Positions 16,937 through 39,389 are shown, numbered from the stretch's first letter. The stretch is 64,000 bases of DNA from an uncultured cyanobacterium (GCA_963793265.1 CAWBZI010000006.1:256001-320000); one strand, 5' to 3'. Program-made: numbers and translations. The notes: generated by a model from the letters alone, not told the origin.

Positions 16937-17599
16937 CTACAGCAAACCCCGATAGCGAATAAACAACAACAGCGCCGCCCACGATCCAAGCGCAACCTTT
17001 ATCGCCACTAAAATATTAAGCAGTGGAATCCAGCCGCCGCTCGTCAGCGTGCCAAGGTTGCCATAGGGCAGCTCTAGCCCAATTAAAATCAGCGCGGCTA
17101 GCACGATAAAAATTAAAACCGAGATTTTTTCTAAAGTAGCCGCGTGCCAGCGCTTATATAGCGCTTCCATACTCGGCAAAGACGTGGTGATCGCCACTAG
17201 GCCAATAGCTGTACCGCCTGCAACGCCCGCAGCAAAACCACCGCCGGGGCTGAGATGACCGCGAATAGCTAGCTCTATGCTGACTAAGGCTGTGATAGTT
17301 GCGCCGATTTGCGCTAAGACAACAGAAGGGTGATCGCTGAATGAGTGGAGCGTGGTGGTGGGCTGTTCATCAGAGAGCAAAAAGCGAACCCCCATTATCG
17401 CAATTGAAAATACAACAACTTCAAAAAGCGTGTCGTACAGGCGGTTTCTAAAGATAATGCCAGAAACCGCGTTCGGAACGCCTGTGTCTTGCACAACCAT
17501 TTGAACGATTGATAGGTCGAAAGCGTCTGGTGCAAAGTTTGGAAACACCAGCATTTTGATGAACAGCGCCACGCCAGCGGCTATGTAGATCCACTTCAT
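16937..17599 (-). CDS. mnhB: Mrp/Mnh Na+/H+ antiporter subunit B
   Basis: PNAVSGIIFRNRLYDTLFEV and GHLSPGGGF motifs. Confidence 0.85.
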   Translation of the reverse strand: MKWIYIAAGVALFIKMLVFPNFAPDAFDLSIVQMVVQDTGVPNAVSGIIFRNRLYDTLFEVVVFSIAIMGVRFLLSDEQPTTTLHSFSDHPSVVLAQIGATITALVSIELAIRGHLSPGGGFAAGVAGGTAIGLVAITTSLPSMEALYKRWHAATLEKISVLIFIVLAALILIGLELPYGNLGTLTSGGWIPLLNILVAIKVALGSWAALLLFIRYRGLL

Positions 17600-18162
17600 G
17601 TCGGAACCTCCTTAGAAAGATCTGTTGGGGGGTTAGGCCGAGGATGAGAAGAAGGTAGCTGGATGTAGCCAACAGTTGCCAGATCTGGCGGTAGTCCTGA
17701 TTGCAAAATTCGGTAGAGGTGGTTGACTCGGGTGTCTATCAGGAAGGGGTGCGATCGCAAACAAATGGTATGCACATCCCGGCTCATAAGCGCCGCCTTT
17801 AGTTCTTCAGATGACGCATAGGAAAGCACTTCAAGCCGAAGATGGTGAGGGGCGATCGCAAGCTGAACAGGCGAGAGCAGCGTTTCGTCAAACACGGCAC
17901 ACTCACTTTTGATCACCCCTAGTTTCATCGTCATAGACGAGCGCACCGTAATCGAATACAGCGTAATCGAAAGCATCGTGCCCACTAAGGCTTCGGTTAG
18001 GGCAATATCGGCCGCGCCAAAGAGCGTGTAAGTGAGGGCAGCGATCGCCCCCAAAACGCCGCGAATCACCATCGCTCTATAAGGATTCGTTTGCAGCACC
18101 ACCAAACCCGCCGAGAGTGGCAGCAGTGCGACCAAAGACAATACCAACAAGTTTTCAGGCAT
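17596..18162 (-). CDS. Mrp subunit, DUF4040 domain (MrpA C-terminal-like)
   Basis: GAADIALTEALVG motif; operon context. Confidence 0.8.
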   Translation of the reverse strand: MPENLLVLSLVALLPLSAGLVVLQTNPYRAMVIRGVLGAIAALTYTLFGAADIALTEALVGTMLSITLYSITVRSSMTMKLGVIKSECAVFDETLLSPVQLAIAPHHLRLEVLSYASSEELKAALMSRDVHTICLRSHPFLIDTRVNHLYRILQSGLPPDLATVGYIQLPSSHPRPNPPTDLSKEVPT

Positions 18163-18490
18163 TTTGCTCTCCAGAATTATTGTGAGCGTTACTGTGGAAG
18201 CTGTCGTAGTAGCAGTAGGCTAAAACATAGCTCAACACCGTATTCCACATCGCCAAAGAAAATAGCGCCAGCACCAGCAGCGGCCACTCTCTTGGAATTT
18301 CAACCAGCAGACCGGCAATAATGCTCATAGAGCCGAGCGTATCGGAAACAGAGAGGCTATGTAGCTTAAATAAAACAGAGCGGCGCTTGCCAACAGCCGC
18401 AATATCGAGCAAAGGCGCTGAGCCCCAGAGCCAAAATACGGCCCCCACTGCAAAACAAAACGTGCTGACGACTGTTCTTAAAATATCCAT
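18155..18490 (-). CDS. mnhG: Mrp/Mnh antiporter subunit G
   Basis: KLHSLSVSDTLG motif, 3 TMs. Confidence 0.8.
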   Translation of the reverse strand: MDILRTVVSTFCFAVGAVFWLWGSAPLLDIAAVGKRRSVLFKLHSLSVSDTLGSMSIIAGLLVEIPREWPLLVLALFSLAMWNTVLSYVLAYCYYDSFHSNAHNNSGEQNA

Positions 18491-18494
18491 TGTC

Positions 18495-18824
18495 TTAAAC
18501 CTCCCGCTCTGAATTAAGCCTTTGCAAATTGAGTCTTCTCAAGATATGAGCGAGCAGCATCAGCGACGCATTGCCCACGCTCAAAATCAGCACGCCCACC
18601 AAACCAACCATCCAGTCATCTCGCCAAACAGAAATTACCAAAATGATTACGGACGTTTTGGTGGAGATACTGGTAAAAGACAGTAGTTTCGACCAAACCC
18701 CCTCTAGCGGAGCCCGAACTAATAATGTGCTACCCACACGTCTTTGGGGCCTACACGCCTCTTGAAAAAGGCTATAGATAGGCATCATCAGCGCGATGGA
18801 CATTGCAATCAATAGCCAAATCAT
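18495..18824 (-). CDS. Mrp/Mnh antiporter subunit F-like
   Basis: Small 3-TM protein between mnhE and mnhG. Confidence 0.6.
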   Translation of the reverse strand: MIWLLIAMSIALMMPIYSLFQEACRPQRRVGSTLLVRAPLEGVWSKLLSFTSISTKTSVIILVISVWRDDWMVGLVGVLILSVGNASLMLLAHILRRLNLQRLNSEREV

Positions 18825-19237
18825 GGTTTTCTCCTGGGGCCAACGCTATGAACAATATATTCACCGCAGCCTGTACCATCGGTTGAATAGTCTACGACAA
18901 TTGTTTTAGGCGTAAAAGTAATTAAAAAGATGTCTAAAAAGATTAGTCCCCGCGTTTGCCGGTGTGGAATTCGCTCGATTACAATGTCTTCTTCGGTGTG
19001 GGGGTCTAGCATCATTTCAATCGCTTCTATATAGGCTCTGGGAATGGCGATCGCAATCTTCCAGAGCATATTTGCCCATTCTTTCCATAGCGGCACAGAT
19101 GCTTTATCAGTAAGGCGATCGCTCAACTGAGGCAATAGCAAGGCGATCACAACGCCAATCGTTATATTCGCCCAACTGGTATCTGCGGTTAGCAAAAACC
19201 AGAGCGTGAGCTTAAAGGCAATATCAAAGACTCTCAT
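18821..19237 (-). CDS. mnhE: Mrp/Mnh antiporter subunit E
   Basis: LITFTPKT motif; ATG at 19237 overlaps the upstream stop (ATGA). Confidence 0.8.
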   Translation of the reverse strand: MRVFDIAFKLTLWFLLTADTSWANITIGVVIALLLPQLSDRLTDKASVPLWKEWANMLWKIAIAIPRAYIEAIEMMLDPHTEEDIVIERIPHRQTRGLIFLDIFLITFTPKTIVVDYSTDGTGCGEYIVHSVGPRRKP

Positions 19238-20706
19238 GGCAGCGTCCACCAAAATAGAAACAACAGTACAAGGCTCATAGAGCCAATCAAATGCTCAAGA
19301 TTTTCAGGCGCGTGAGATAGCTGAATGCGCTTTGCGATCGCTGCTTTTTGAAAGAGACTATGCAGCAACCAGCCGCCGCCAGCCGTAGCAAAAGCCTTTA
19401 CTAAATTGTTGACGGTGTAGACTTCAGGCTGTAAGGCGCTGATAAAAACCAGGCTAACTAGCGATAGCGCCGCCGCTATCCAAAAGCCTCTCGTAAGCTG
19501 GGAGGCCACCTTTCTAGAAAACGGTAAAAAGATAAACTTACCCATCACCGCAGCCGTCCCCACCGCAGCGACATTCATCGCTACAGACTGCCAGCCGCTC
19601 AGCTGATCTAGCGTTAGGGCTTTCGCGTTAAAGCCTGCTAGCACCGGAATTCCACAGACAGACAGGCTCGCGCCTGTCACCACCGCCCAGTGAGAAAAGG
19701 GTAGAGGCGATCGCTGTAATTCATCAAACTGACGGCTCGGCAAATTGCCCACCGACAAAAACAGCACGACCTTTGCTAGCCCATGAGTCAGTGCGTACAG
19801 TCCAGCCGCAGCAGGAGCAACCAGCACAAATCCCAACTGCGAAATCGTGCTCCAGGCCAGTGTCCGCTTGGTGTCTTTTTCGAGCAGGGCGCAGCTCGTG
19901 CCCAATATGGCCGTGCCCACGCTGAAAAGTTGCAGCATCGGCCCAATCTCTTCAACCAGCAGCGCGCAGCGTACCAGCGGAAAAATGCCTGTTTTCACCA
20001 CCGCGCCAGAGAGCATCGCAGAAACCGGCGTATCCACTTCGGCATGGGTGAGCGGTAGCCAGAGGCCAGAGACAAAAACACCGCCTTTGGTGAGTAAGCC
20101 TAGTGCGATAAGTGCGATCGCTTCTCTTGGCGCGTTGCTCAGTCCTTCAAAGGCAAAAGAATGATTAGCCTGATAAACCAGCACCGCCCCCATCAGGTAG
20201 AACAACATAGCCGTGTTGCTCACAAACAAATAGCGCAGGCCCACCCAAATATTACGATCTTTGCGCGGATAGACAATCAACAGAAAAGCGGCCACGCCAA
20301 TCACTTCTAGCGCTACATACAAACTCATAAAGTCTGCGCAGATAAAAATAGAGTTCATGCAGCCGTGTAGCACCGTCACCTGAGCAAAAAAGAACGCTGT
20401 CTTATCGCTCACCGCTCCTGTTCTCGGCCAGCAGTAAGACACAACGGCCATCGTCACCAGCGCATTCATTAAAATGAAATAGCCGCTAAGCGAATCAGCC
20501 ACTAGCGTCACGCCAAAGCTATCGATAAGCTGAAGGTTAGTAGGGGCAAATACAGCAATTCGATATAGTCCATAAACAGCTGAAATCGCAGCCATGCTGG
20601 CTGTTAGATATCGATCTAGCTGAGGTAGCAGATAAACGCTGAATCCCAAAAATAAGGGCAGCGCTATCCATACCACCGTCACCGCACCCAAAGCGTCAGT
20701 AATCAT
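19234..20706 (-). CDS. mnhD: Mrp/Mnh antiporter subunit D (NdhD5-like)
   Basis: Polytopic membrane protein; LYVALEV, WLPLTH....PVSAMLSG, KRTLAWSTISQLG. Confidence 0.85.
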   Translation of the reverse strand: MITDALGAVTVVWIALPLFLGFSVYLLPQLDRYLTASMAAISAVYGLYRIAVFAPTNLQLIDSFGVTLVADSLSGYFILMNALVTMAVVSYCWPRTGAVSDKTAFFFAQVTVLHGCMNSIFICADFMSLYVALEVIGVAAFLLIVYPRKDRNIWVGLRYLFVSNTAMLFYLMGAVLVYQANHSFAFEGLSNAPREAIALIALGLLTKGGVFVSGLWLPLTHAEVDTPVSAMLSGAVVKTGIFPLVRCALLVEEIGPMLQLFSVGTAILGTSCALLEKDTKRTLAWSTISQLGFVLVAPAAAGLYALTHGLAKVVLFLSVGNLPSRQFDELQRSPLPFSHWAVVTGASLSVCGIPVLAGFNAKALTLDQLSGWQSVAMNVAAVGTAAVMGKFIFLPFSRKVASQLTRGFWIAAALSLVSLVFISALQPEVYTVNNLVKAFATAGGGWLLHSLFQKAAIAKRIQLSHAPENLEHLIGSMSLVLLFLFWWTLP

Positions 20707-21068
20707 GACGTGTAGCTCTCCTCAATCTCATGGCAGTCCAACGTTGGATTGTCTTTAGAGAGTTTCATTACGCCCACTAGCATGAGCGCTTGAATAGAAA
20801 AGCCGATGACAATAGCAGTTAGAATCACCGCTTGAGGCACCGGATCGGCATAGGCTACCGCTTCGAGACTCGCCGCTTCAATACTCTCAGGAGACACTGC
20901 AATCGGCGTGGCGATACCCGTACGAGAGGCGATCACCACATAATAAGCAATCACCCCCGTGCTCATCACGTCCATGGCGATTGTTTTCATCACTAAATTT
21001 TTCTTGAAAATAATGCCAAAGAATCCGAAGAAAACAGTGGCAAACACAAACGCTTCTAAAACAGGCAT
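20703..21068 (-). CDS. mnhC: Mrp/Mnh antiporter subunit C
   Basis: DPVPQAVILTAIVIG motif. Confidence 0.9.
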   Translation of the reverse strand: MPVLEAFVFATVFFGFFGIIFKKNLVMKTIAMDVMSTGVIAYYVVIASRTGIATPIAVSPESIEAASLEAVAYADPVPQAVILTAIVIGFSIQALMLVGVMKLSKDNPTLDCHEIEESYTS

Positions 21069-25965: not shown

Positions 25966-26223
25966 AGAAAAGCTGACAAAAAGTCTTTGGAAACGAAAGG
26001 ATGATGCATGACTCGTCCAGACGTAAGAGACAACCGAATGTTCTGTTCTAACCTTTGAAGGTAGAAATCATTTGGTATCTATCACTACTATAAATGTACC
26101 GGCGGAAAGGCGTTTGTCTAAAGCGCTTCGCACTTAAGGAAGCCATTTTTACAGGCTACGCATAGCAGCGGTGAGTCGTTGCTATATCCACCGCCATTGA
26201 ACGCATTCATAGAGAATTATTTT

Positions 26224-26709
26224 ATGCCTATTTCAACTTCCACAGCCGATCAAAGCAAGCATGATGCTTCTGACTACACAGATGATTTTGCAGAGTACAA
26301 AGAGCAGTTCGGCAAGCTAAGCGCTGACGACAAACTTACTACGCTCTACAAAATCTACGATGGCTTGGGCGATAGCAGGATCGAAAACCCTGATGACAAC
26401 AAAGAGTCTGACAGTTCTTCTGAGCTATACAACCAGCTCAAAGACAAATCTCAAGACGATCAGCTACAGTTCATGCGTGACGCGCTCTCTGGCTCTGACA
26501 ATGCCCTAACAGGCCAGTACAATGAGCTATCTGATACTACAAAAATCGCACTGTGGTACCGCCTTGCTCAAGGCATGGATAAGAACGATGTTGTCGGGCT
26601 ACCTTCTGACTACAGCCTGTCTGATGAAGGCAAGGATTTGGTCAGCAAAATGAATAGCAATAGTTTCGAACAAAGCTACATTTTTGTTCGCGATGTTGTC
26701 GTTGGCTAA
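26224..26709 (+). CDS. Helical carotenoid protein (OCP N-terminal domain homolog), divergent and acidic
   Basis: F..LS.DDKL..LY, QLQFMRD, Y..LS...K.ALWYRLAQGM...V..P.DY.LS, FEQ. Confidence 0.75.
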   Translation: MPISTSTADQSKHDASDYTDDFAEYKEQFGKLSADDKLTTLYKIYDGLGDSRIENPDDNKESDSSSELYNQLKDKSQDDQLQFMRDALSGSDNALTGQYNELSDTTKIALWYRLAQGMDKNDVVGLPSDYSLSDEGKDLVSKMNSNSFEQSYIFVRDVVVG

Positions 26710-29679: not shown

Positions 29680-30156
29680 TTAAGTCGCTTTTATCAGCAC
29701 TAAGTCACCTTCAACTTTCGCCTCATAAGTACCTAGCGCCTCAGTCGCAGGCCCCTCAATCACCGCACCATCGGCACTAAACTTGGAGCCATGGCAAGGA
29801 CAGGCAAACTCACCCTCTGCCCACGCCACGCTACAGCCTTGATGAGTACACATAGAATCTAATGCAATCACGCCCTCTGCATTGGCCGGATCGCGAATAG
29901 CCACCACTGGCCCAGCAATAAAGCTTTTGGACGAAAGCGAACCCTCAGCATCTAGCTCAGCAACAGTGCCGAGTGCGGCAAATCCATCGTCACGAATGCT
30001 GCTATCAACTTCTTCAGCGGCGGGCGCTGTGTCCAAGTCCGCGTCAACCGCAGGGGCTTCCGCCGTTTCAGAAGATCCGCAGGCAGCTAAGGCCACTGGC
30101 AGAGAAGTTGCAACCAGTCCTAGCCCAACAAAGTTTAAAAAGTCTCGACGTTTCAT
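29680..30156 (-). CDS. Rieske [2Fe-2S] protein, PetC3-like Tat-exported lipoprotein
   Basis: MKRRDFL twin-arginine motif, LAAC lipobox, CTHQGC and CPCHGS boxes, GPA. Confidence 0.9.
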   Translation of the reverse strand: MKRRDFLNFVGLGLVATSLPVALAACGSSETAEAPAVDADLDTAPAAEEVDSSIRDDGFAALGTVAELDAEGSLSSKSFIAGPVVAIRDPANAEGVIALDSMCTHQGCSVAWAEGEFACPCHGSKFSADGAVIEGPATEALGTYEAKVEGDLVLIKAT

Positions 30157-30195
30157 CCTAGATTCACTCCTCTCAATTATTAGATGAATTTGGGC

Positions 30196-31911
30196 TTACG
30201 AATTTGAGCTAACAATTGCCTCGGGAACAGCCGCCTTTGCAAACCATCCCTTATAGCGCGCAGTCGCCGCTAAAACAAACAACAAATCGGCTCCGACGAC
30301 AGCCGCGATCGCCCACTCAGATCCGCCCGTGCCAAAGCCGTAGCTATGCAAGCCCGTACCTAGCACAAAGTTTACGCCATACCAGGCCATCAGCACCGCA
30401 TTAAAGGCCACAACGCTTGCCACGCTAATGCCAAAGTTGCCGATCCAGCCGACTAAACGACCGTGCAGCGGAACCAGATAACACAGCAGCGCAATCAAAG
30501 CCCATGTCTCTTTAGGATCCCAGCCCCAGAATCTTCCCCAAGAGAAGTGCGCCCAAATGCCGCCTAAAATAATGCCAGCGGTTAGCAGCAGTACGCCCAC
30601 TTGCAGCACGTTGTAGTTAAGCTGAGAGAGCAGTTGAATACGCGCCCTCGCCTGTGGAGAAAACAGATAGCTGCCGAGCGCAACGTGCCCGATCCCTAAC
30701 GCTAAAGCAAAACTTGCGTAGCTCAGCGCGATAGTCGGCACGTGAATGCTTAGCCAAAAGTTATCTCGCAAAACCGGGACTAACGGTGAAATGCTCGGGT
30801 CTAATACAGCCGGTAGGCTGTCTGCGAGAACTAGACACATCACCGACAGCGGGGCTGCTGCTAATAGATAGTATTTGGCGCGGTAGATGAGTTCAAAGGA
30901 AAGGGCGATCGCAGAAATTCCAAACCCAACCCAAACCACCGACTCGTACATATTTGTCACAGGCGGACGGCCCGCGACCTGCATTCGCAGCCAAAAGCCA
31001 TAGCTCTGCACGGCCACACCTGCCACAAATAAACCCATTGAGCCCCAGTAGAGTTCTAGCGGCTTTATCCACAGCGTCAGCAGCATTGCGACAAAGGCTA
31101 AAGCGTAGAGCTGCCAGGCTTTTGCAAAGGGATGGAAGTGATTGAAAAAGACTTCTTGCCGCATTGCGCCGCTCACCGGATACACGGTTGGGCTGAGCTG
31201 TCGCAGTCCGCTTTGCAATGATTCAGCCAGCGGGGTGAGCATCGGCAAATGATCGCTCCCTGAGAAGAAAGTTTGCTTCATGATCGTAAAGCTCGCGATG
31301 AGAGGAGAAATCGCTTCGGGGGCGTATAGCGACTGCGCTTCGCTAATGCCCATCCACTTTCCTTTAGGGTCGGTGGGGTGAGGAACGATAGCGATCGCAT
31401 TGTCGTCCACCATTTCTAGCATGAGCGTAAGGCGGTCTTCTAGTGCGATCGCCTCGCGCTCATCCCGGCTTATTTCTTCCTCGGCCAAATCTTTTCGGTG
31501 CGCTTCTCTGACCACTTCACCCAGCGCTTTATTGGTCATCAGCGTTTGAAAGGAGAAATACTTTTGGTCGGGATCTACGCCGATAATCTCCTTCAGCGGG
31601 CGATAGCTAAAGAGCACGAAATTCTCTTCATTCCAGTTGCGATTGTTTAGCCACAGCGATAAAAAAGTCTCCATAGAGCCCTCTTTTACACCATTGCGAT
31701 TATAGGTGGTCGCGCCGTGAATTTTAGCGACTGTCTCTTTAGCGATCGTATCCAGCGGCTTTTTGCGCCCGCCCTGCTGCACCACCATGGTTTCTAACGG
31801 TTCTAAAGGCGAGTGTTGAAACTGGGTAAGCGGAAGGGCAATCAGTAATAGACCCAAACAGAGGCCCACTAGGAACTTTATACTTTCAAACTTTGCAATT
31901 TTCATCAGCAT
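30196..31911 (-). CDS. ccsA: System II cytochrome c synthase CcsA with long N-terminal periplasmic extension
   Basis: WWD motif WAHFSWGRFWGWDPKETW, WLSIH, GLHSYG, P.TN.YES; N-terminal GRKKPLDT; start overlaps the ccsB stop (TGATG). Confidence 0.9.
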   Translation of the reverse strand: MLMKIAKFESIKFLVGLCLGLLLIALPLTQFQHSPLEPLETMVVQQGGRKKPLDTIAKETVAKIHGATTYNRNGVKEGSMETFLSLWLNNRNWNEENFVLFSYRPLKEIIGVDPDQKYFSFQTLMTNKALGEVVREAHRKDLAEEEISRDEREAIALEDRLTLMLEMVDDNAIAIVPHPTDPKGKWMGISEAQSLYAPEAISPLIASFTIMKQTFFSGSDHLPMLTPLAESLQSGLRQLSPTVYPVSGAMRQEVFFNHFHPFAKAWQLYALAFVAMLLTLWIKPLELYWGSMGLFVAGVAVQSYGFWLRMQVAGRPPVTNMYESVVWVGFGISAIALSFELIYRAKYYLLAAAPLSVMCLVLADSLPAVLDPSISPLVPVLRDNFWLSIHVPTIALSYASFALALGIGHVALGSYLFSPQARARIQLLSQLNYNVLQVGVLLLTAGIILGGIWAHFSWGRFWGWDPKETWALIALLCYLVPLHGRLVGWIGNFGISVASVVAFNAVLMAWYGVNFVLGTGLHSYGFGTGGSEWAIAAVVGADLLFVLAATARYKGWFAKAAVPEAIVSSNS

Positions 31912-33806
31912 CAACGACCCGAAAAGACGTTCAATAAAGGAATTTCAACTGGCACTTTTTCTACTTCTGCATCGGTAAGGACATCTGCTTCAGCACTGGC
32001 TTTAGCATCAACAGACTTCGACGGTTTCTTGAACTTCTTAGCCAAAGCACGACCGTAAAACATTGTCGCCACGCCCACAATCACCATGGTCGAGCCTAGC
32101 CAGGTAAGGCCGGTCACCCACCAGGGCTCTCGCTTTACCTGCAAGGTAGACTGGCTCAAGTCGCCTGGATTCCAAGACGCTTGGGCAATCTTCCAGCCCT
32201 TATACCAGGTGGGGTGGTTCATCCAGACGCGACGATCAGCGCGATCGCCCGAATGGGGATCAGTTAGCGACACCGCACTCGTCCACATCGCTACAGACTC
32301 ACTCCCCTCGTTGCGATCCACAATAAAATCATTCAGCTTCAGACTAAAAGGAAGCTGCAAAAGCTTGGGGCTAAACGCCACAAACCAGTCACCGCCCGCC
32401 TGACTAATTGTTGTCGGCTCGCCCCAGGGCACCCACACCGGCTCGCCTTGAGCCTTTAAATTCGTTAAGTCTGTTGCACCTACCGAACCGGATGAAACCA
32501 ACAGCGCAGGCTCTCCTTGTCCAGGCATCGCATCATCTGGCAAAGGCACCACTTCGCGTTTCACCTGTGCCTTACGCACCACTTCAGCTAGGGTCACCTC
32601 AAAATCAGCCCACCCAGGCGTCACCGAATCACCAACTGCCAGAGCACCTGACTTAAAGCCTTTAGAAGACTTCGCTGCATAGTGCAACTCGCCCGCAGCA
32701 TCGACCACGACTCGAAAGAAAGCATCCGGCTCAGCAGCGGCAGCCGTCACGCTATAGGCCACCTCAGCCGCAATCGGCTCGCCCGAAATTTGCGTGCGAA
32801 TTGGCTCAAAGCTTGGATTGCCAAATACAAACCAGCTCTCAACAGACTCGCCTTCAGCGACAATAAGCTGCACCGCCGGGTTGTTTAGCTGCTCAGAAGC
32901 ACTCACCGGCTGACGGTTTCCATCCAAGCGAAAATCAGGCCAAAAGTCTTTCACTTCTAGCGCCAGCGTTTTACCCTTCGCCGTCAGCTCAATCGGCGCT
33001 TCTAATGTTTGAGCGGGTTGCAACCTTCCGGCAACGTCCACCCGCTCACGCTTTCCTTGCCAGGCAACCTCTATTTCTCCCCACTGGGCTGCTTCAGCCG
33101 GTTCAGCAGAAGCCGTTAGCAGTTGGGCTAAGTCTTCTTTCGTATCAGCTTTAGCAATTTGCAGCTCAGCCGGGCCGACATTTATCTTCTCATAAGCAGC
33201 AGGAGCCACCGCTAGCCACCGCTCTAAAGACTGACCCATGCGATCGCTCTTCAGCACCAGTCGCACCGCCGGGTTCTCAACGCTGCCACCCTCTTCAAAC
33301 CGCACAGTCTTAATCGTACGGCTGCTATAGCCCAGCAGAGACATTCCGCCGATTCGATTGGGCACAACCGTCCCATCCGCCTTAATAAACAGAGAAGTTC
33401 GCTGCGGCATTTCACCGGGCGCGGCCACCTCAATCAAATCACCTTCTACTCGCAAAGTACTTACCGCTCCAGCGTCAGTGCGAGCTAAGAGCATTCCTTC
33501 TACGCTCAAGTGAATGACTGCTGCTGAGCCTGCAATAATCACGATCAGGCCCCAGTGAGTAATCGCAAACCCTATTTTACGCGCACCTTTCCAGGGATAG
33601 CGAGATAGGGTTGAAAGGCCAAGGTTGAGAGCCAACAGAAACATAAGCCCGCCAAACCAGGGGCTTTTATATATTTCTTGTTGAACAACAGCAGAGCCGA
33701 CTTCGGATTCGTAGAAGGTTGCGCCGATGAGAATGAACGCGATCGCCCCCAGCAAAGGCACCGCCAGCTTGATAGAGCCTAGAAACTCAGTAAGTTTGAC
33801 CGTCAT
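31911..33806 (-). CDS. System II cytochrome c biogenesis protein CcsB/ResB-like
   Basis: LGS.KLAV.L...GATFYES, IY.SPWF, conserved TM His in THWGLI, F.L.L.DF, MNHP...GW...Q.S, C-terminal TM. Confidence 0.85.
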   Translation of the reverse strand: MTVKLTEFLGSIKLAVPLLGAIAFILIGATFYESEVGSAVVQQEIYKSPWFGGLMFLLALNLGLSTLSRYPWKGARKIGFAITHWGLIVIIAGSAAVIHLSVEGMLLARTDAGAVSTLRVEGDLIEVAAPGEMPQRTSLFIKADGTVVPNRIGGMSLLGYSSRTIKTVRFEEGGSVENPAVRLVLKSDRMGQSLERWLAVAPAAYEKINVGPAELQIAKADTKEDLAQLLTASAEPAEAAQWGEIEVAWQGKRERVDVAGRLQPAQTLEAPIELTAKGKTLALEVKDFWPDFRLDGNRQPVSASEQLNNPAVQLIVAEGESVESWFVFGNPSFEPIRTQISGEPIAAEVAYSVTAAAAEPDAFFRVVVDAAGELHYAAKSSKGFKSGALAVGDSVTPGWADFEVTLAEVVRKAQVKREVVPLPDDAMPGQGEPALLVSSGSVGATDLTNLKAQGEPVWVPWGEPTTISQAGGDWFVAFSPKLLQLPFSLKLNDFIVDRNEGSESVAMWTSAVSLTDPHSGDRADRRVWMNHPTWYKGWKIAQASWNPGDLSQSTLQVKREPWWVTGLTWLGSTMVIVGVATMFYGRALAKKFKKPSKSVDAKASAEADVLTDAEVEKVPVEIPLLNVFSGR

Positions 33807-33917
33807 GAAAAGCAACACTCACGCTAATGTCTTGGTTAGCTGACACCTCCCGTACAAAATACAACTAAGGAGATACGCAGAAACACGCATCTGTATAGTT
33901 GTTCGATTAACAAACTA

Positions 33918-33943
33918 TTTTTTGTATCGAAAGTTGCAAAAAA
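33918..33943. promoter_or_regulatory. NtcA/CRP-like palindrome TGTA-N8-TGCA flanked by T6 and A6 runs, upstream of ccsB
   Basis: TTTTTTGTATCGAAAGTTGCAAAAAA; one mismatch to GTA-N8-TAC; no canonically spaced -10 found. Confidence 0.45.
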
Positions 33944-34238
33944 CGACTAAGTTATTCTTTTTTCACATTCCACGATTCTACATTTTGCATAACAAGCCCT
34001 AAGCCAACCTTTGTTTTTCTTATCCTATCGCAGACATAGATCCCTTACAGCGCAATCAATACAGCCATCAAAGAAGGAAATAAAACAGCAATTCACATAG
34101 CTTTTCCTCGAAAACGGACAATACTATAAAATCATTCAATCAGAAGGTTCGTTCGCTTGCAGCAACATAAATAAATCAACAGACGAATGCAATTGTTGCA
34201 CAGGCATGATGCGAAAATCGAGAAACTTTCTCTTGTTT

Positions 34239-34281
34239 TGTAACCAAAAGCACAAACACGAATAAGCTACCCACCTACGGT
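34239..34281 (+). promoter_or_regulatory. Class II NtcA-activated promoter candidate: GTA-N8-CAC, N22, TACGGT
   Basis: GTA 34240-42, CAC 34251-53, exactly 22 nt spacer, TAN3T box at 34276-81; about 120 bp upstream of the globin ATG. Confidence 0.6.
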
Positions 34282-34402
34282 TTGAGTTGTGAACTACGTA
34301 AATAGACGGATTTCGCAAAAGAATCTCATCAAGAGCCTCTAGAGCATATTTATTAATTCAGTTTTACAGTTTTGTAGTTCCTTTTTATGGAGTCTCTCAA
34401 GC

Positions 34403-35539
34403 ATGTCTTTAAATGTAGAGCTTTTAGAGCAGAGCTTTGAGCTAGTCAAGCCAAAGGCTGACGAATTCACCAGCAGCTTTTACAACAACCTATTCACCGA
34501 CTATCCAGCATCGAAGCCACTGTTCGAGCATTCGGATATGGGCAAGCAACAACAAATGCTCAAAGGTGCCCTGGTCATGGTGGTTGAAAACCTGAGAAAG
34601 CCCGAAGTGCTTAGCAAAGCGCTCAAAGGCTTAGGCGCTCGTCATGTAAAGTATGGCGCGCTACCTGAGCACTACCCTTTGGTCGGCAACAGCTTACTCA
34701 AAACGCTGGGCCAGTATGCAGGCGATGCCTGGACGCCTGAGCTAAAAGACGCTTGGGTAGGGGCCTATGGCGCGATTACTGAGCTGATGCTAGAAGGTGC
34801 TGACTACTCGAAGCAGGCCGTTGCGCTAGAAGCCGTTGTGCTAGAAACGATGCCGCCTGTACCGCCCGCAGCGGTCGGATCTTCGATGACTGATGTAGAA
34901 CCAGTGCTTACAGAACCAGCGCTTACAGAACCAGAAGCAGAAGGACTTAAAGTAGAGCTTTTAGAGCAGAGCTTTGAGCTAGTCAAGCCAAAAGCTGACG
35001 AATTCACCAGCAGCTTTTACAACAACCTATTCACCGACTATCCAGCATCGAAGCCACTGTTCGAGCATTCGGATATGGGCAAGCAACAACAAATGCTTAA
35101 AGGTGCCCTGGTCATGGTGGTTGAAAACCTGAGAAAGCCCGAAGTGCTTAGCAAAGCGCTTAAAGGCTTAGGCGCTCGTCACGTTCAATATGGCGCACTG
35201 CCTGAGCACTACCCTTTGGTCGGCAACAGCTTGCTCAAAACGCTGGGCCAGTATGCAGGCGATGCCTGGACGCCTGAGCTAAAAGACGCTTGGGTAGGGG
35301 CCTATGGCGCGATTACTGAGCTGATGCTAGAAGGTGCTGACTACTCGAAGCAGGCTGTTGCGCTAGAGCCCCCGGTCGTAGCTGCTGTTCCTAAGCCTGA
35401 GCCAGTTGCGGTGACAACAGAGCCACTAGCGTCATCAGAGTCTCAAGAGTCTGTAGAGGGCATCGATAACAAAACGGCGGCTGGCATTATTGGCGGTTCT
35501 ACGGTGCTGCTCACGCTCATGCTACTCATCCTTCTTTAA
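34403..35539 (+). CDS. Tandem double globin (flavohemoglobin-like single-domain globin x2) with C-terminal membrane anchor
   Basis: Each domain has FY (TyrB10), PLF (PheCD1), QQQML (GlnE7), LGARH (HisF8), YG..PEHYP.VG, AW..AY; tail AAGIIGGSTVLLTLMLLILL. Confidence 0.9.
   Translation: MSLNVELLEQSFELVKPKADEFTSSFYNNLFTDYPASKPLFEHSDMGKQQQMLKGALVMVVENLRKPEVLSKALKGLGARHVKYGALPEHYPLVGNSLLKTLGQYAGDAWTPELKDAWVGAYGAITELMLEGADYSKQAVALEAVVLETMPPVPPAAVGSSMTDVEPVLTEPALTEPEAEGLKVELLEQSFELVKPKADEFTSSFYNNLFTDYPASKPLFEHSDMGKQQQMLKGALVMVVENLRKPEVLSKALKGLGARHVQYGALPEHYPLVGNSLLKTLGQYAGDAWTPELKDAWVGAYGAITELMLEGADYSKQAVALEPPVVAAVPKPEPVAVTTEPLASSESQESVEGIDNKTAAGIIGGSTVLLTLMLLILL
34415..35367 (+). repeat. Intragenic direct repeat, 2 x 416 bp (34415-34830 and 34952-35367), about 97% identical
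   Basis: Copies offset by 537 bp; about 11 mismatches counted by eye. Confidence 0.95.
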
Positions 35540-35573
35540 GCGCGTCTAAGCAATAGGTTTAAGCAATAGGCTG

Positions 35574-36254
35574 ATGACAAATCGTTCAAAACCAAGCAGG
35601 AATCACAGCAATAGCCCTGGCAAAAAGAAGTTTGACTGGCGATCGCAGGTTAACTTGAAAGGGGCGATCGCACTCACCTTAGTGCTGTTACTCACCTGGG
35701 TTTCTGCGGCCTTTGCTCTCGAAAACAAAGAGGTCTTCTTGCCCGGTGAAACCTCAGAAGGTCATGCTTTGTTTGAAGCCTCCTGTGCCTCTTGCCACGA
35801 AGGCTTTAAAGCTGTCAGCAACGAAAACTGTACGCGCTGCCATCAGGCCGAACTAGCCGAAGATGTCCATGGCGCAAAAAAGTTTAAAGATCCGCGCTGG
35901 GCCAGCTATCGAGAAAACTTAGAAGTTCTCACCTGCACGGCCTGCCACAACGAGCACGTTCACATGTTCGGGCGCGGCGTACATCTTCAACCCGACCTTT
36001 GCATGGTTTGTCACGAAGAACTCACCACCACTCAGCTCAAGAGCCATGAGGGCTTCGAGGCAGACGGCTGTTGGACTGCCGGGTGTCACAACTACCACGA
36101 CCACCGTACTATCTCGACCGGATTTTTGAGGCAAAATATGGGTGAACCGGCAATGCTACCCGTGCAAAAGCTACCCGATCGCATTGTCACAACAGAGCTG
36201 AAAACCGCGCCAAGCCCCAACCTGAGCAAAGCGTTTTTGGAGGCGGGCACATGA
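35574..36254 (+). CDS. Exported multiheme cytochrome c, 4 CXXCH + 1 CX4CH
   Basis: CASCH, CTRCH, CTACH, CMVCH, CWTAGCH; hydrophobic signal or anchor ending AFA. Confidence 0.88.
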   Translation: MTNRSKPSRNHSNSPGKKKFDWRSQVNLKGAIALTLVLLLTWVSAAFALENKEVFLPGETSEGHALFEASCASCHEGFKAVSNENCTRCHQAELAEDVHGAKKFKDPRWASYRENLEVLTCTACHNEHVHMFGRGVHLQPDLCMVCHEELTTTQLKSHEGFEADGCWTAGCHNYHDHRTISTGFLRQNMGEPAMLPVQKLPDRIVTTELKTAPSPNLSKAFLEAGT

Positions 36255-37111
36255 TCACTCGCCGCACTCAAAACCGGCTAATAAGACTACTAGCCCTGCT
36301 GCTGATTGTTCTTTTCAGCTTAGGCGCAGCGATCCCGGCAGCAGCTACAACTCAAAGTGAGCTTCAGGAGATCAACAAACAGTGGCAAACCAGCGCCCAC
36401 GCGCTCAACGATGTCAACTGTGCTAGCTGCCACCAGGAGAGTGAAACCAAAGCGTTTGTGGCTAATCCTACGCACGAAAGCTGTCAGTCGTGCCATGAGA
36501 ACTCAGTAGACACCTTTTTACTGGGCAAGCACGGCATTCGGCTATACGAAGGAGAATCTGCTTTAACGCCTAAAATGGCTCGGCTTCCGATGAAGCATGA
36601 GGCGTTTGATAAGCAAATGAACTGCAACGCTTGCCACAACGTCCACACCGTCAACACGATGCAAGCCTCAGTCGATGCCTGCCTCACCTGTCATAACGAC
36701 AACCACTCGCTTAACTACAAAAACTCCAAACATGCCAAAGCTGTTTTTGCCAGTCAAGAGACGAGTAAAGGCTCTGATAGCGCGAGCGACTTGCTGCCTC
36801 GGCCTGGCCCTGAAGCCGTCACCTGCGCGACCTGCCACCTGCCGCGCACGGGCACCGAAAAGGCTGACGGCACCACCGTGGTAAAGGTGAACCACAACAA
36901 CACCTACAACCTAAAACCTCAAGATCGCATGGTGGGCGATGTCTGTATGAACTGCCATGGGGTGGAATACAGCTACAACAGTATTTTCGACGAAGCCCTC
37001 GTCGAAGCCAATTTTGACCGACCTCCGACGCTTACTCATCCTTCTTTCGAGTTGATGAGAGCTGCTGAAGCAAGGAGAGCGGGCAATGATTCTGATTCGG
37101 AAGGCCCTTAA
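36251..37111 (+). CDS. Exported hexaheme cytochrome c with HAO-superfamily-like motif spacing
   Basis: CASCH, CQSCH, CNACH, CLTCH, CATCH, CMNCH; Sec signal peptide; ATGA overlap with upstream gene. Confidence 0.9.
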   Translation: MITRRTQNRLIRLLALLLIVLFSLGAAIPAAATTQSELQEINKQWQTSAHALNDVNCASCHQESETKAFVANPTHESCQSCHENSVDTFLLGKHGIRLYEGESALTPKMARLPMKHEAFDKQMNCNACHNVHTVNTMQASVDACLTCHNDNHSLNYKNSKHAKAVFASQETSKGSDSASDLLPRPGPEAVTCATCHLPRTGTEKADGTTVVKVNHNNTYNLKPQDRMVGDVCMNCHGVEYSYNSIFDEALVEANFDRPPTLTHPSFELMRAAEARRAGNDSDSEGP

Positions 37112-37227
37112 GCACAACTTTAAGCTCAACTATCTGAACTTAAAATCAACAGCCTTTCAACAGAAAACTAAAGTGCGTGAAAACGACACGCAGAATGAAA
37201 TTCAAAAAACTTAGGAGACTCATCACA

Positions 37228-37890
37228 ATGGTTATCACGACCTGGCTACAGCGCATTCGCACAAAGACCATGTTTCTATTCGCTTTAGCAGCGGCTATCT
37301 GTTTTACCGCCGTCGCCTGTAGCGGCGGTGGCAGTGGAACGGCTACAGCAACAGGGCCTATGATCGCCCCCGAACTCGTTGCCGACTACATCCACACCGC
37401 TCTCGCCGCCGACCGCACGGCCTACACTAAAAACGTTGTCAACCGCGCCAAAGTACTAGAAGGCAAAGAGAAAGCAGACGGCGTTCTGACCATTGAATCG
37501 ACCGAAGGCTGGCAGCAAACTGACGGCATTCCTCTGCCCGCACAAATGTTCCGCCTCGGCTCTGAAATTGCCAACGAAAACGGCGCTTATACCTACAGCC
37601 TCGTTTCTCCCTGGAATATCAACGACAACCAGGCTCCCAAAGGAGAATTTGAAGCCACATCTGTTGAAACCATGATTGAAACTGGCGAGCCGGTCAAAGG
37701 CTATCAAGAAGTCGCCGGACAGGCGTATTTCTCAGCGATGTATCCTGACTTGGCCGTTGCTGAAGCCTGCGTAACTTGCCACAACACTCACCCTGTCCAC
37801 CTAGAGCGCTACCCCGACAAAGTGTTTGAAATGGGCGACGTTATGGGCGGTATCATCATCAACATCCCCGTTGACAGTATGCCTGGCTAG
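37228..37890 (+). CDS. Tll0287-like/DUF3365 monoheme c lipoprotein
   Basis: AVAC lipobox plus Gly linker, R.AY, LPAQM, YSL.S....N....P...FE, ACVTCH, GDVMGGI; AGGAG RBS before ATG 37228. Confidence 0.8.
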   Translation: MVITTWLQRIRTKTMFLFALAAAICFTAVACSGGGSGTATATGPMIAPELVADYIHTALAADRTAYTKNVVNRAKVLEGKEKADGVLTIESTEGWQQTDGIPLPAQMFRLGSEIANENGAYTYSLVSPWNINDNQAPKGEFEATSVETMIETGEPVKGYQEVAGQAYFSAMYPDLAVAEACVTCHNTHPVHLERYPDKVFEMGDVMGGIIINIPVDSMPG

Positions 37891-37925
37891 AGGAGTCTCG
37901 AAACCCATCCCACTCCCAGCCGACA

Positions 37926-37967
37926 AAATCCCCTCTGGAGGGGTGGCCCGCAGGGACGGGGTGGGTT
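37926..37967. repeat. REP-like palindromic repeat (CCCCTC-tg-GAGGGG...GGGGTGGGTT) inside the operon
   Basis: Short GC-rich hairpin and G-rich tail of the kind seen in cyanobacterial intergenic repeats. Confidence 0.55.
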
Positions 37968-38058
37968 CCGGCAACTCTCACAGCGAACCCGGTTACCCTC
38001 GCTACAAATCTCCTTTCTATCTAGCGCTTTAATAAGAACCAACAGATCGGCAAAAGTA

Positions 38059-38676
38059 ATGAAGCCACAATTCTCTACCCTCATTATTCTGACGCTGGTT
38101 TGCGCCCTACTGCTGGTGCCCTTTGCACTCAGCCCGATCTATCTAGATGCATTGCGCGATCGCTCATTCGAGCTGCACCAGTTTTTACGCGGCGAACTCT
38201 ACAAACAAACCACCGGCTTTGCCTCCTTAGCCCTCGTCTTTGTAGAGATGACCCTCACCATGCGTAAGCGCAGCCGAAGCTGGTCTATTTGGCCCAGCAA
38301 ATGGAAGCTACCAGGGGCCGTGATGATCTGGCGCACCATCCACATTTTTATTGGCACTGCTCTAGTCGCCGTTGTTTTGGTTCACACCCTCGGCTCAAGC
38401 GGTCTTAACTACAACGCCATTTTGCTATGGGTCTTTTTTGGCGTCACGCTCTCTGCCCTCCTCGGGGTCGTCGCTGAAACCGGCGTTTTAGAATCGCCCC
38501 GCAAAATCTTTAATATCGGTAGTAACAAAGTTGTTGAAGGCAAAGCCGTTGGCATCGGCAAAGGTGCTTTGGTGCGTGGAATGCGCGCCGTTTGGCTACC
38601 CTCTCATATCTTTTTAGTGAGCGTGTTCGGGCTCATGCTCGTCATTCACATCTTTTTAGCCTATTACTTTCGCTAG
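38059..38676 (+). CDS. Polytopic membrane protein with two His pairs, putative diheme cytochrome b (ferric-reductase-like TM domain)
   Basis: WRTIHIFIGTALVAVVLVH and WLPSHIFLVSVFGLMLVIH, both H-X13-H within TM helices. Confidence 0.65.
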   Translation: MKPQFSTLIILTLVCALLLVPFALSPIYLDALRDRSFELHQFLRGELYKQTTGFASLALVFVEMTLTMRKRSRSWSIWPSKWKLPGAVMIWRTIHIFIGTALVAVVLVHTLGSSGLNYNAILLWVFFGVTLSALLGVVAETGVLESPRKIFNIGSNKVVEGKAVGIGKGALVRGMRAVWLPSHIFLVSVFGLMLVIHIFLAYYFR

Positions 38677-38688
38677 GGGCAAATCATC

Positions 38689-39174
38689 ATGATCTCAACC
38701 ACCGAAAATCGCAGCGCACTCTGGCGGTTATGGCTAGCCCTGATCGCTATTCTAGTAGCGGTATGGGCCACCCTACTACTGACCCGCCCTGCCGCCAAAA
38801 CTATGAGCATGACACCGCTCAGCGGGCTAATGACTCTGAAGTCGCTTGCCGCTGAGGCCGTCTCCTACGAAGCAGCTTTGGCAAACCAAAAGCCCACTTT
38901 TATAGAGTTCTACGCCGACTGGTGTACAACCTGCCAAAGCACCGCGCCAACCATCCAAAATCTCCATCAGCAGTACAGCGAGCAGATAAACTTTGTCATG
39001 CTCGATATTGACAATCCCAAGTGGGCATCTCAAATTGCCCAATACAAAGCCTCCGGCGTTCCTCAGTTCACGCTCATCGCTGCTGACCAAGCGCCAATCA
39101 ATACCTGGGTAGGCAAAGTGCCTAAGCCTATCTTCACCGAAACGTTCGAGCGACTGCTAGTAGAGAAGCCATGA
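38689..39174 (+). CDS. Membrane-anchored thioredoxin-like thiol:disulfide oxidoreductase (CcsX/ResA/TxlA-like)
   Basis: N-terminal TM, EFYADWCTTC, GVP cis-Pro loop. Confidence 0.85.
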   Translation: MISTTENRSALWRLWLALIAILVAVWATLLLTRPAAKTMSMTPLSGLMTLKSLAAEAVSYEAALANQKPTFIEFYADWCTTCQSTAPTIQNLHQQYSEQINFVMLDIDNPKWASQIAQYKASGVPQFTLIAADQAPINTWVGKVPKPIFTETFERLLVEKP

Positions 39175-39389
39175 CTATTCTTCGCCGGTTTATTCAATTC
39201 CTAGAGTGGCTAGAAACCGCTCAAGACTTCTGCCACTTTCTAGCGCAGCCTACGGGCCTATCGCTAACCGCCGCGCTCCTTCTCTACTGCCCAATTCAGA
39301 TGCTAGGGTGCGATCGCCTCTCAGCTGCAACCCTATCGTGCACCATCGCGCTTACGCTATTTTGCCTATCAGAGCGCCCCGACTTCTAG
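39171..39389 (+). CDS. Small hypothetical membrane protein
   Basis: 72 aa, ATGA overlap with the thioredoxin stop, two hydrophobic segments. Confidence 0.5.
   Translation: MTILRRFIQFLEWLETAQDFCHFLAQPTGLSLTAALLLYCPIQMLGCDRLSAATLSCTIALTLFCLSERPDF

Follow-up and report, generated by a model that had tools for sequence, protein, structure and literature searches.

What might a cyanobacterium gain from keeping a globin, two multihaem cytochromes, a Rieske protein and an extra set of cytochrome c synthase genes side by side? The question is raised by a 64,000-nucleotide stretch of DNA from an uncultured cyanobacterium (GCA_963793265.1, CAWBZI010000006.1:256001-320000; the whole of this stretch is called the window below), in which ten genes form a divergent cluster at positions 29680-39389. 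According to the accessible part of one study, cyanobacteria are treated as lacking native multihaem wires, and foreign ones have hence been engineered into them for photocurrent (PMC12983203). We read the cluster as a nitrogen-controlled redox module of the plasma membrane that handles nitric oxide (NO) or related N-oxides (hydroxylamine, nitrite), and put the probability of this reading at roughly 0.45; the direction of electron flow, the physical contacts, the substrate and the localisation are what we infer within it. An initial annotation of the locus, which had proposed N-oxide scavenging from the sequence of the window, is partly supported by the present analysis.

Three genes of the cluster lie on the minus strand and seven on the plus strand (34403 to 39389 in the list of open reading frames, ORFs), the two sets being separated by a 584-bp intergenic region, and every ORF that the initial annotation had assigned to the cluster was found at its place. 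The 12 haem-c motifs it had counted are likewise present (four CxxCH and one CX4CH in a five-haem protein, six CxxCH in a six-haem protein and one CxxCH in a Tll0287-like protein), and the translationally coupled junctions it had claimed take the form of four-base overlaps between the genes for the ResB-like and CcsA-like proteins (31911-31914), the five-haem and six-haem proteins (36251-36254), and a thioredoxin and a small ORF (39171-39174). Pfam and NCBIfam searches agree with the domain assignments of the cluster genes.

The multihaem cytochromes and the four-histidine membrane protein

Is the cluster a unit? A scan of one genome per species recovered 40 cyanobacterial loci with an orthologue of the six-haem protein at 58-79% identity, from carriers including Phormidesmis, Leptolyngbya PCC 7375, Adonisia, Leptothoe, Vasconcelosia, Geitlerinema, Moorena, Hyella, a Pleurocapsales strain and Oscillatoria; outside these loci the same scan gave weak proteobacterial and Bacteroidia matches only, and homologue lists add the cultured carriers Synechococcus PCC 7335 and PCC 7376. 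Across the 40 loci the six-haem gene is present in 40, the Tll0287-like and five-haem genes in 39 each, the membrane protein in 38, the globin in 37, the thioredoxin in 34, the small ORF in 31, and the ResB-like, CcsA-like and Rieske genes in 27, 26 and 25, the misses being mostly contig ends. All ten genes are syntenic wherever the contig is long enough, and in the three rearranged loci (L044, L049 and L050) the cluster genes still adjoin one another. Conservation as a unit across genomes, for which the initial annotation had proposed a survey, is thus what the loci display, and this conserved synteny makes the cluster more than a chance assembly. The genes that flank it in the window (DUF1350 and an M48 peptidase) are not kept beside it in the other loci. 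A first draw found the cluster in 15 of 24 same-genus genomes and in none of 16 other families; it is rare in the phylum, with three carriers, from three families, in an even draw of 400 genomes.

Two plus-strand genes encode the multihaem proteins, one of 226 residues with four CxxCH motifs and one CX4CH (CWTAGCH; 35574-36254), the other of 286 residues with six CxxCH (36251-37111), and they are the sole ORFs with at least three CxxCH motifs in the whole 5.68-Mb genome. Besides the motif histidines, six histidines are invariant in the alignment of the six-haem protein and six in that of the five-haem protein. A metagenome scan returned single-chain 11-haem proteins of 436-496 residues, with ten CxxCH and one CX4CH; in 15 distinct ones the first half aligns to the five-haem protein and the second half to the six-haem protein. 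Between the cyanobacterial pair and these 15 chains none of the 11 motifs is lost, and of the 12 extra histidines 11 are invariant, H177 of the five-haem protein being the exception. The matched halves and the kept motifs and histidines argue that the pair is a split 11-haem cytochrome, its two proteins apparently the N-terminal and C-terminal halves of one wire, and a candidate second histidine for every haem points to a wire-like protein, not an enzyme with an open haem. The two separate multihaem cytochromes of the initial annotation are therefore present as genes, but as proteins they would be halves of a single wire that has no open catalytic haem. The N-terminal helix of the five-haem half ends in an AxA-type site, and a profile search of solved structures with this half gave nothing meaningful; identity with the NapC/NirT/NrfH quinol dehydrogenases was considered for it and set aside, there being no PF03264 match at E <=0.01. 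An AlphaFold2 model of the six-haem protein reached a predicted local distance difference test (pLDDT) score of 43.7.

What could carry electrons across the membrane is suggested by the gene at 38059-38676 (plus strand), whose 205-residue product has five predicted helices and is a putative dihaem cytochrome b. The initial annotation described a four-histidine membrane protein; the sequence holds five histidines, of which four (H95, H109, H183 and H197) are invariant in 18 orthologues and form two pairs (95/109 and 183/197), each 14 residues apart, on two helices. The protein of the window has no Pfam hit, matches no family above its curated cut-off and scores 10.4 bits to PF01292. Across the 18 orthologues there are weak matches to Ni_hydr_CYTB (17), DUF4405 (16), PepSY_TM (7) and Ferric_reduct (2), and the best orthologue E-values (3.1e-5 for DUF4405, and 1.2e-3) are all weak. 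A purified DUF4405 protein binds haem b, and its four central histidines have been likened to those of MsrQ-like and PepSY-like cytochromes in the accessible text of a 2024 study (PMC11334425).

A full hidden Markov model search for relatives of the membrane protein in 1.84 billion representative sequences gave 215 hits at E <=0.001, the best 150 of which were surveyed: the four histidines align as HHHH in 97, another 40 align the first pair only, substitutions are nearly absent, and the 53 without HHHH are mostly unaligned in the second half. Among the same best 150 of 215, 55 relatives have at least 400 residues with the domain at the C-terminus, and 53 of the 55 carry an N-terminal, cytoplasmic NAD(P)H flavoprotein module (the other two are without a match). 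The usual module is composed like NirB in its N-terminal part, of Pyr_redox_2, Rubredoxin_C and a BFD-type [2Fe-2S] domain; some relatives have cyclic-nucleotide-binding (cNMP), BFD and FNR-like domains, and one has H-NOX, Pyr_redox_2 and BFD. The reductase stands immediately before the first helix, which puts the N-terminus in the cytoplasm, in agreement with strongly basic loops at residues 69-88 and 142-178, and a cytoplasmic N-terminus with such loops would bring one histidine pair near each membrane face. This fused-reductase topology is the strongest evidence for a role in carrying electrons between a cytoplasmic partner and the periplasm, and the protein looks like a transmembrane electron carrier of the DUF4405/MsrQ-like dihaem-b family. 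The dihaem b subunit of the initial annotation accordingly fares well by its four histidines on two helices, by weak DUF4405/b561 matches in 16-17 of 18 orthologues and by the 53 fused among 55 long relatives. Structure comparison added little: a model of the protein (pLDDT 63) gave generic helical matches only, with a best Z of 9.7 among unrelated helical bundles in a wide structure search and no match at E <=0.001 against the PDB with Foldseek, a profile search of solved structures returned nothing meaningful, and a search of the ESM Atlas returned only unnamed clusters. As a separate observation, the relatives P0329, P0360, P0362 and P0367 have H-NOX haem-NO-binding or cyclic-nucleotide-binding domains beside the flavoprotein reductase.

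The initial annotation had also presented the system as cyanobacterial; its core is not confined to the phylum, as is seen in 44 loci obtained by scanning metagenome contigs with stand-alone relatives of the membrane protein. A five-haem-like or six-haem-like ORF occurs in 32 of these loci, a Tll0287-like ORF in 18 and both in 17, a globin-like ORF in 11, and the reductase-fusion form of the membrane protein in 20; eight loci have none of those ORFs, five of the eight being on contigs of <=2.3 kb. Homologues of the Rieske, thioredoxin, CcsA, ResB and small-ORF genes are absent from all 44. On these counts the core consists of the membrane protein, the 11 haems and the haem-Cache protein, with the globin as a frequent extra, and the other five genes of the cluster were added in cyanobacteria. 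In L058, a locus of the unfused kind, the genes follow the order of the cyanobacterial cluster, at 28-48% identity.

The surroundings of the module were surveyed with 64 hand-picked flanking ORFs from 15 non-cyanobacterial loci, module genes and near-duplicate loci being left out. Directly upstream, L066 has narG (partial), narH, narJ and narI, a peptidyl-prolyl isomerase and a hemerythrin-HHE gene; L082 has an NrtA-like binding protein, a permease, an ATPase and a porin upstream; and L058 has downstream a single gene of the NIR_SIR plus NirD-type Rieske kind. L072 is ambiguous (an ATP-binding cassette permease and ATPase upstream, a major facilitator superfamily gene downstream). A hemerythrin-HHE gene likewise lies upstream in L085, while the genes downstream are those for a monohaem cytochrome c, a truncated globin and a Fer2-FAD-NAD reductase in L092 and for a diflavin reductase in L081. 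The hemerythrin-HHE ORFs, of about 170 residues, stand directly upstream of the reductase-membrane fusion (L066:6873-7391 and L085:6863-7372); ORFs of the same size were noted at L074:6871-7398 and L090:6860-7369, and two of the four hemerythrin candidates pass E 1e-6.

A conduit of this kind could also run outward, as an electron valve or for extracellular electron transfer: electrons from cytoplasmic ferredoxin or NADPH would pass, by way of the globin or directly, over the dihaem b and the wire to a periplasmic or outer acceptor (O2, Fe(III), Mn oxides or another cell as partner). Surplus reductant from photosynthesis would in this way be shed whenever nitrogen assimilation, which normally consumes a large share of the electrons, comes to a halt. 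The relatives of the membrane protein are mostly NOX-like fusions drawing on cytoplasmic NAD(P)H, an 11-haem chain with bis-histidine ligation is typical of periplasm-spanning wires, an NtcA-type promoter (see below) fits induction by nitrogen limitation, and most of the carriers are marine organisms of benthic, epiphytic or sediment habit; two proteobacterial loci moreover pair a Fer2-FAD-NAD reductase and a cytochrome-b-like protein with four-haem and ten-haem cytochromes. A plain wire, however, needs neither the haem-Cache protein nor the globins that recur with the module, some relatives lie beside nar, nrt or nir genes, and neither an outer-membrane porin or beta-barrel partner of the MtrCAB type nor a surface cytochrome is among the genes conserved across the 40 loci, so that we regard outward transfer as unlikely. 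The two proteobacterial loci come from metagenome-assembled genomes (L051:4403-9932 and L052:4495-10034), and their genes encode the Fer2-FAD-NAD reductase, a four-haem c554-like protein, a cytochrome-b561-like membrane protein and a ten-haem protein. Their membrane proteins, the closest in proteobacteria, were tried as homologues and rejected, with likeness in one helix only (hhalign probability 82-86%, E 0.003 in the genome search); the operon is an analogous but distantly related conduit.

Plausible nitrogen control, the globin and the haem-Cache protein

What would switch such a conduit on is suggested by the intergenic region. NtcA-activated (class II) promoters have GTA-N8-TAC about 22 nucleotides upstream of TAN3T. 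In all 27 ResB-globin intergenic regions a GTA-N8-NAC site stands 22 nucleotides (23 in one) from a TAN3T box, oriented toward the globin, as against 2.3 on average and at most 6 in shuffled sequences; the consensus across loci is TTTnGTAnC-N6-cACAAAA, followed downstream by TAc..T. In the window the promoter occupies 34240-34281 on the plus strand (GTAACCAAAAGCAC, 22 nucleotides, TACGGT), with the site at 34240-34253 and TACGGT at 34276-34281. The same relaxed pattern lies upstream of 53 of 3444 long ORFs genome-wide (1.5%), and the genome has an NtcA gene. The architecture corresponds to the textbook layout of NtcA activation and makes nitrogen control of the globin operon, as the initial annotation had supposed, plausible (27 of 27 regions against 2.3 expected). 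The strict GTA-N8-TAC is absent from the intergenic region of the window and present in 12 of the 27 loci, and a scan for sigma-70 promoters and terminators gave nothing above shuffles. Two further observations concern promoters: a glnN-like gene of the same genome outside the window (C6:928113-930287) has a perfect version of the promoter (GTATATGCCGATAC, 22 nucleotides, TACGAT), and on the ResB side of the intergenic region a conserved TGTATC-N6-TGCA box (33923-33938, strand not assigned), found in 11 of the 27 regions, accompanies several TGCA-containing repeats.

Nitrogen limitation also figures in the idea that a membrane-tethered globin feeds O2 to a reducing chain and so scavenges it for nitrogenase. 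There is precedent in the nif-linked cyanoglobin of Nostoc, the promoter is of the NtcA type and the genome itself has nifD. The expected association is nevertheless missing: among the 24 same-genus genomes three have the cluster and nifD, 12 the cluster only, two nifD only and seven neither, and in other families the cluster is missing from many genomes that have nifD, which leaves protection of nitrogenase scarcely credible. The co-occurrence with nif that the initial annotation had raised is thus not seen, nor is that with NOS, for which the own genome (98.97% complete) has no PF02898 match.

The globin gene (34403-35539, plus strand) encodes 378 residues that match PF00042 twice, and both halves match the globin part of NF009805, the model for NO-inducible flavohaemoglobin (E 1.7e-48); the protein has no FAD or NAD reductase domain, and its whole-protein score to NF009805 is 165 against a cut-off of 432. 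The conserved columns include those that we take, from Hmp numbering, to be TyrB10, GlnE7 and HisF8, and a hydrophobic C-terminal tail is present in 18 of 20 orthologues; this membrane tail is absent from ten non-cyanobacterial globin-like ORFs linked to the module. The globin is in tandem in most genomes and single in some. These features indicate a flavohaemoglobin-type globin that would face the cytoplasm and be held by its membrane tail, in keeping with the cytoplasm-facing globin of NO-dioxygenase type in the initial annotation. The two halves in the window are 96.9% identical over 426 nucleotides, as against 73-86% in 11 other genomes; because they have diverged elsewhere and are near-identical here, an old duplication followed by recent gene conversion in this lineage is suggested. 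In some clusters the gene for the membrane protein or the thioredoxin is followed by a further globin gene, a single one, and one cluster has a ChaN-like haem-binding protein beside the Rieske gene (examples of the two kinds are L043:4591-5139, L050:10801-11331 and L050:2605-3486).

The third exported haem protein (37177-37890, plus strand) is a Tll0287-like haem-c Cache (sCache_heme) lipoprotein, with a PF11845 score of 67.7 bits (cut-off 24.1), a lipobox and a CxxCH motif. In 17 module-linked members, cyanobacterial and other, LPAQM and MGG are invariant, and in all 17 the mature domain has no cysteines besides the CxxCH pair, further ones being confined to the N-terminal signal or lipobox region; the distal cysteine needed for Cys/His axial ligation as in Tll0287 is thus absent from 17 of 17 sequences. 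As a single sequence the protein found nothing in a profile search of solved structures. A preprint, as far as its accessible text goes, describes stand-alone Cache haem proteins as apparently redox-active and lacking an informative gene neighbourhood, and reports that a Cys-less member binds NO with a slow off-rate (10.64898/2026.02.01.703092).

Could the cluster sense rather than convert? The haem-Cache protein and the globin would then register NO, O2 or redox state in periplasm and cytoplasm, and the haem chain would only poise the two. Cache and globin folds often serve as sensor modules, H-NOX (in one) or cNMP-binding domains occur in relatives of the membrane protein, and Cys-less Cache haem proteins behave like NO sensors in what is available of the same preprint, which on the other side finds stand-alone Cache haem proteins redox-like (10.64898/2026.02.01.703092). 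Neither an output domain nor a regulator is among the conserved parts of the cluster, and eleven wire haems with a dedicated synthase would be a costly way to poise a sensor; we hold a sensory role to be very unlikely.

In the reading that we prefer, a redox module for N-oxides, the ten genes would encode one module of plasma membrane and periplasm, in which the DUF4405/MsrQ-like dihaem b passes electrons across the membrane between a cytoplasmic partner and the 11-haem wire, the Cys-less haem-c Cache lipoprotein is the likely small-molecule or end site, and the PetC3-type Rieske protein offers a higher-potential entry or exit point. At the cytoplasmic face of the dihaem b the tail-anchored tandem globin would act as an NO dioxygenase, and on the outside the N-oxide would be bound or reduced by the haems of the periplasm. 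The globin operon, driven by its NtcA-type promoter, would come on with nitrogen assimilation, from which the N-oxide would arise or which it would feed. Elsewhere the donor would be the fused NirB/Flp-like NAD(P)H flavoprotein; cyanobacteria, whose nitrate and nitrite reductases use ferredoxin, may have lost the fused reductase and tether the globin to the membrane instead, the donor probably being ferredoxin or the globin's own reductant. We favour NO or a related N-oxide because of the promoter, the globin type, the Cys-less Cache protein, the associations with hemerythrin, H-NOX and extra globins, and the occasional nar, nrt or nir neighbours, and the nitrogen-related effect of losing PetC3 and the NO-detoxifying system of Bradyrhizobium (both below) are further links to nitrogen and NO; it is from such context that the substrate is deduced. 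A proposal that cyanobacterial haemoglobins reduce hydroxylamine to ammonium is recorded in a review, of which part was available (PMC3820574).

Several observations weigh against this reading. Among the 11 haems there is no CxxCK and, with ligation judged from sequence, no haem without a conserved candidate distal histidine, hence no multihaem site that is obviously catalytic. The promoter sites mostly have GTA-N8-CAC where the consensus has TAC, only 3 of 27 being perfect, five other CRP-family genes of the genome could supply the regulator, and the ResB-side operon has no such promoter in any of the 27 regions. The window holds no nitrate or nitrite gene near the cluster, and outside the phylum the scan of 15 loci showed evident nar, nrt or nir neighbours at no more than three (L058, L066 and L082), with one more ambiguous (L072) and none in the others. 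In the Pleurocapsales locus L049 (2985-3563) the globin is cut to about 50 N-terminal residues running in frame into the Rieske gene, a remnant that suggests the globin is dispensable in that lineage.

A bolder version of the N-oxide reading is possible, though we think it doubtful. It would make the module an unrecognised and widely distributed electron-transfer machine that leads from a cytoplasmic donor (a fused NirB/Flp-like flavoprotein or, in cyanobacteria, ferredoxin) over the dihaem b and an 11-haem wire through the periplasm to a catalytic haem-Cache end reducing or converting NO, hydroxylamine or nitrite, the globin doing the matching chemistry in the cytoplasm. Cyanobacteria would here have their first native multihaem conduit through the plasma membrane, with a synthase set reserved for that membrane, activated by NtcA and turning N-oxides, whether from the environment or from the cell itself, into assimilable nitrogen.

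Proposed cytochrome c maturation, the Rieske protein and neighbouring genes

Why should such a cluster bring its own maturation genes? A long CcsA/ResC-like synthase subunit of 572 residues (30196-31914, minus strand) scores 102 bits to PF01578 (cut-off 29.9), shows the WWD-type motif WGWDPKE in translation and scores 153 bits to TIGR03144, below the cut-off of 187.6. The adjoining ResB/CcsB-like subunit of 635 residues (31911-33818, minus strand) scores 53 bits to PF05140 (cut-off 24.6), covering only profile positions 198-272 (75 of 486), and has no NCBIfam match. Housekeeping copies lie elsewhere in the genome (CcsA, 249 bits, C2:796886; CcsB, 217 bits, C1:171312), to which the cluster proteins are 43% identical over 111 residues (CcsA) and 34% over 92 (ResB-like to CcsB); these second, divergent copies beside a housekeeping set agree with the maturation machinery of its own that the initial annotation had given the cluster. 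For the long CcsA, each of the best 120 homologues is cyanobacterial or without a name, so that no donor lineage can be named. The thioredoxin (38689-39174, plus strand; WCTTCQ, PF00085 64.5 bits) has a conserved N-terminal anchor and CxxC and weak ResA, DsbE and DsbD-type matches, by which it likely keeps the apocytochrome cysteines reduced.

Going by their families, the ResB-like and long CcsA-like proteins and the anchored thioredoxin would make up a second System II cytochrome c synthase set, attaching haem to the three exported proteins on the periplasmic side, and the housekeeping set would presumably serve the thylakoid cytochromes. A periplasmic site of maturation is suggested by the PetC3-type Rieske protein and by the lack of such genes in bacteria with one membrane target. 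The reason for the extra set may likewise be location (plasma membrane or thylakoid) and not the unusual motif, since the non-cyanobacterial versions of the module do without these genes.

The Rieske [2Fe-2S] lipoprotein, 158 residues long (29680-30156, minus strand; PF00355, 46.6 bits), has a twin-arginine translocation (Tat) signal with a KRRDF motif, an AAC lipobox and the bc-type cluster boxes CTHQGC and CPCHGS, all conserved. Its best solved match, over the whole soluble domain, is 5cxm_A (E 1e-20), and it is not the PetC of cytochrome b6f, scoring 65 bits to NF045928 against an equivalog cut-off of 250. In the accessible parts of two studies, 5CXM is PetC3 of Synechocystis, a periplasmic plasma-membrane lipoprotein with no assigned function (PMC10172866, PMC12341915); its midpoint potential is given as +135 mV, and its loss disturbs nitrogen-related metabolism (PMC10172866). 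By these features the cluster protein is assigned as a PetC3-type lipoprotein, probably of the periplasmic side.

A Rieske protein beside a four-histidine b-type and c-type cytochromes recalls the cofactor set of a bc complex, and a quinol-linked respiratory branch could be built from it: dihaem b and Rieske, as a minimal analogue of a Rieske/cytochrome b complex, would oxidise plastoquinol at the plasma membrane, electrons passing to the c-haems and, via haem b, to an O2-reducing globin. The low potential reported for PetC3 in the available text suits quinols (PMC10172866), and the membrane protein has weak matches to the cytochrome b561 family. Yet no cluster protein matches a cytochrome b/b6 family or shows Qo-site motifs, the Rieske gene is absent from all 44 non-cyanobacterial loci, and in relatives of the membrane protein the electrons come from fused flavoproteins and not from quinol; a quinol-fed branch is in our judgement quite unlikely.

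The last gene of the cluster (39171-39389, plus strand) encodes a hydrophobic, Cys-rich ORF of 72 residues, conserved in 31 of 40 loci and without a family match in Pfam or NCBIfam. Pentapeptide-repeat protein genes adjoin the cluster in 25 of the 40 cyanobacterial loci, rearranged ones included (for example L016:11133-12065, L021:9076-11023, L044:11419-11892, L049:3695-4618 and L050:3602-4525), and there are none in the window; a functional link with the cluster may exist and is a candidate only, the family being abundant in cyanobacteria. Upstream of the cluster the window holds an operon for a Mrp-type multisubunit cation/proton antiporter (16937-21068) and a helical carotenoid protein, the N-terminal domain of an orange carotenoid protein (26179-26709); its remaining genes are ordinary.

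Relation to known systems

How much of this is new? No description of the cluster was found in the searched literature, which excludes subscription journals and bioRxiv supplements. The parts and the kind of system, a transmembrane haem conduit, are known; the composition is without a characterised counterpart in that literature. The new elements are the split 11-haem wire, the placement in the dihaem-b family, the core outside cyanobacteria and the 27 of 27 NtcA-type promoters. If our reading is true, stand-alone haem-Cache proteins gain a gene neighbourhood and a candidate role, PetC3, which has no known partner, gains a fixed set of neighbours, and the electron donor of single-domain globins, which usually have no known donor, becomes a testable question. 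The second System II set would then offer a way to study the sorting of c-type cytochromes to periplasm or thylakoid lumen. The wider module, with its fused NAD(P)H reductases and, at some loci, its nar, nrt or nir neighbours, could have a part in the microbial turnover of NO and N-oxides that has so far been overlooked.

Among multihaem enzymes the nearest relatives are those of the HAO/NrfA superfamily. The best solved match of the six-haem half is a HAO-like octahaem protein (6h5l_A), at a weak E of 1.4e-7, followed by weaker matches to NrfA and octahaem nitrite reductases; the HAO and NrfA alignments pair different haems, and the cluster pair differs in having no CxxCK and a distal histidine candidate for every haem. 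The homology thus appears to hold at the level of the module only. The haem-Cache protein resembles Tll0287 and the sCache_heme family in scoring above the PF11845 cut-off and in being a stand-alone, exported protein with CxxCH in the same place; it differs from Tll0287 and the Pseudomonas putida protein in lacking the distal cysteine, and from stand-alone sCache_heme proteins in having a conserved gene neighbourhood.

The four central histidines on two helices and the weak profile matches liken the membrane protein to the DUF4405, MsrQ-like, PepSY-like and NOX dihaem-b carriers, and the fusion of its relatives to cytoplasmic NAD(P)H reductases likens it to NOX in particular; its partners here would be an 11-haem cytochrome c and a haem-Cache protein, in place of the MsrP, flavinylated proteins or siderophores of the DUF4405/MsrQ-like group. 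The cluster Rieske protein shares with PetC3 the Tat signal, the lipobox and a phenylalanine replacing the bc-type tyrosine after CPCHGS; it retains, however, a serine that PetC3 has lost, so that its potential may exceed that of PetC3, and it has a fixed gene neighbourhood, whereas the Synechocystis protein is without an assigned partner. Dedicated System II synthases beside their substrates are known from Wolinella (NrfI and CcsA1). The likeness lies in extra CcsA/ResB-type genes beside unusual multihaem substrates, one of which here has the non-standard CX4CH; the difference is that the extra set of the cluster occurs in an organism with two target compartments.

The nearest characterised logic is that of Bradyrhizobium's NarK-Bjgb-Flp-NasC system, in which, according to the accessible text, a single-domain globin and a flavoprotein detoxify NO within a nitrate-assimilation operon (PMC4724949). 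The same text, in the part available, reports no membrane cytochrome b, multihaem cytochromes or haem-Cache protein there, and the window in turn has no flavoprotein or nitrate reductase adjacent to the cluster. What the two systems share is a flavohaemoglobin-type globin without a reductase of its own, placed under what looks like the control of nitrogen assimilation, and, in the non-cyanobacterial module, a flavoprotein like Flp and the N-terminal part of NirB, which is there fused to the membrane protein, with nar, nrt or nir genes adjacent in some cases.

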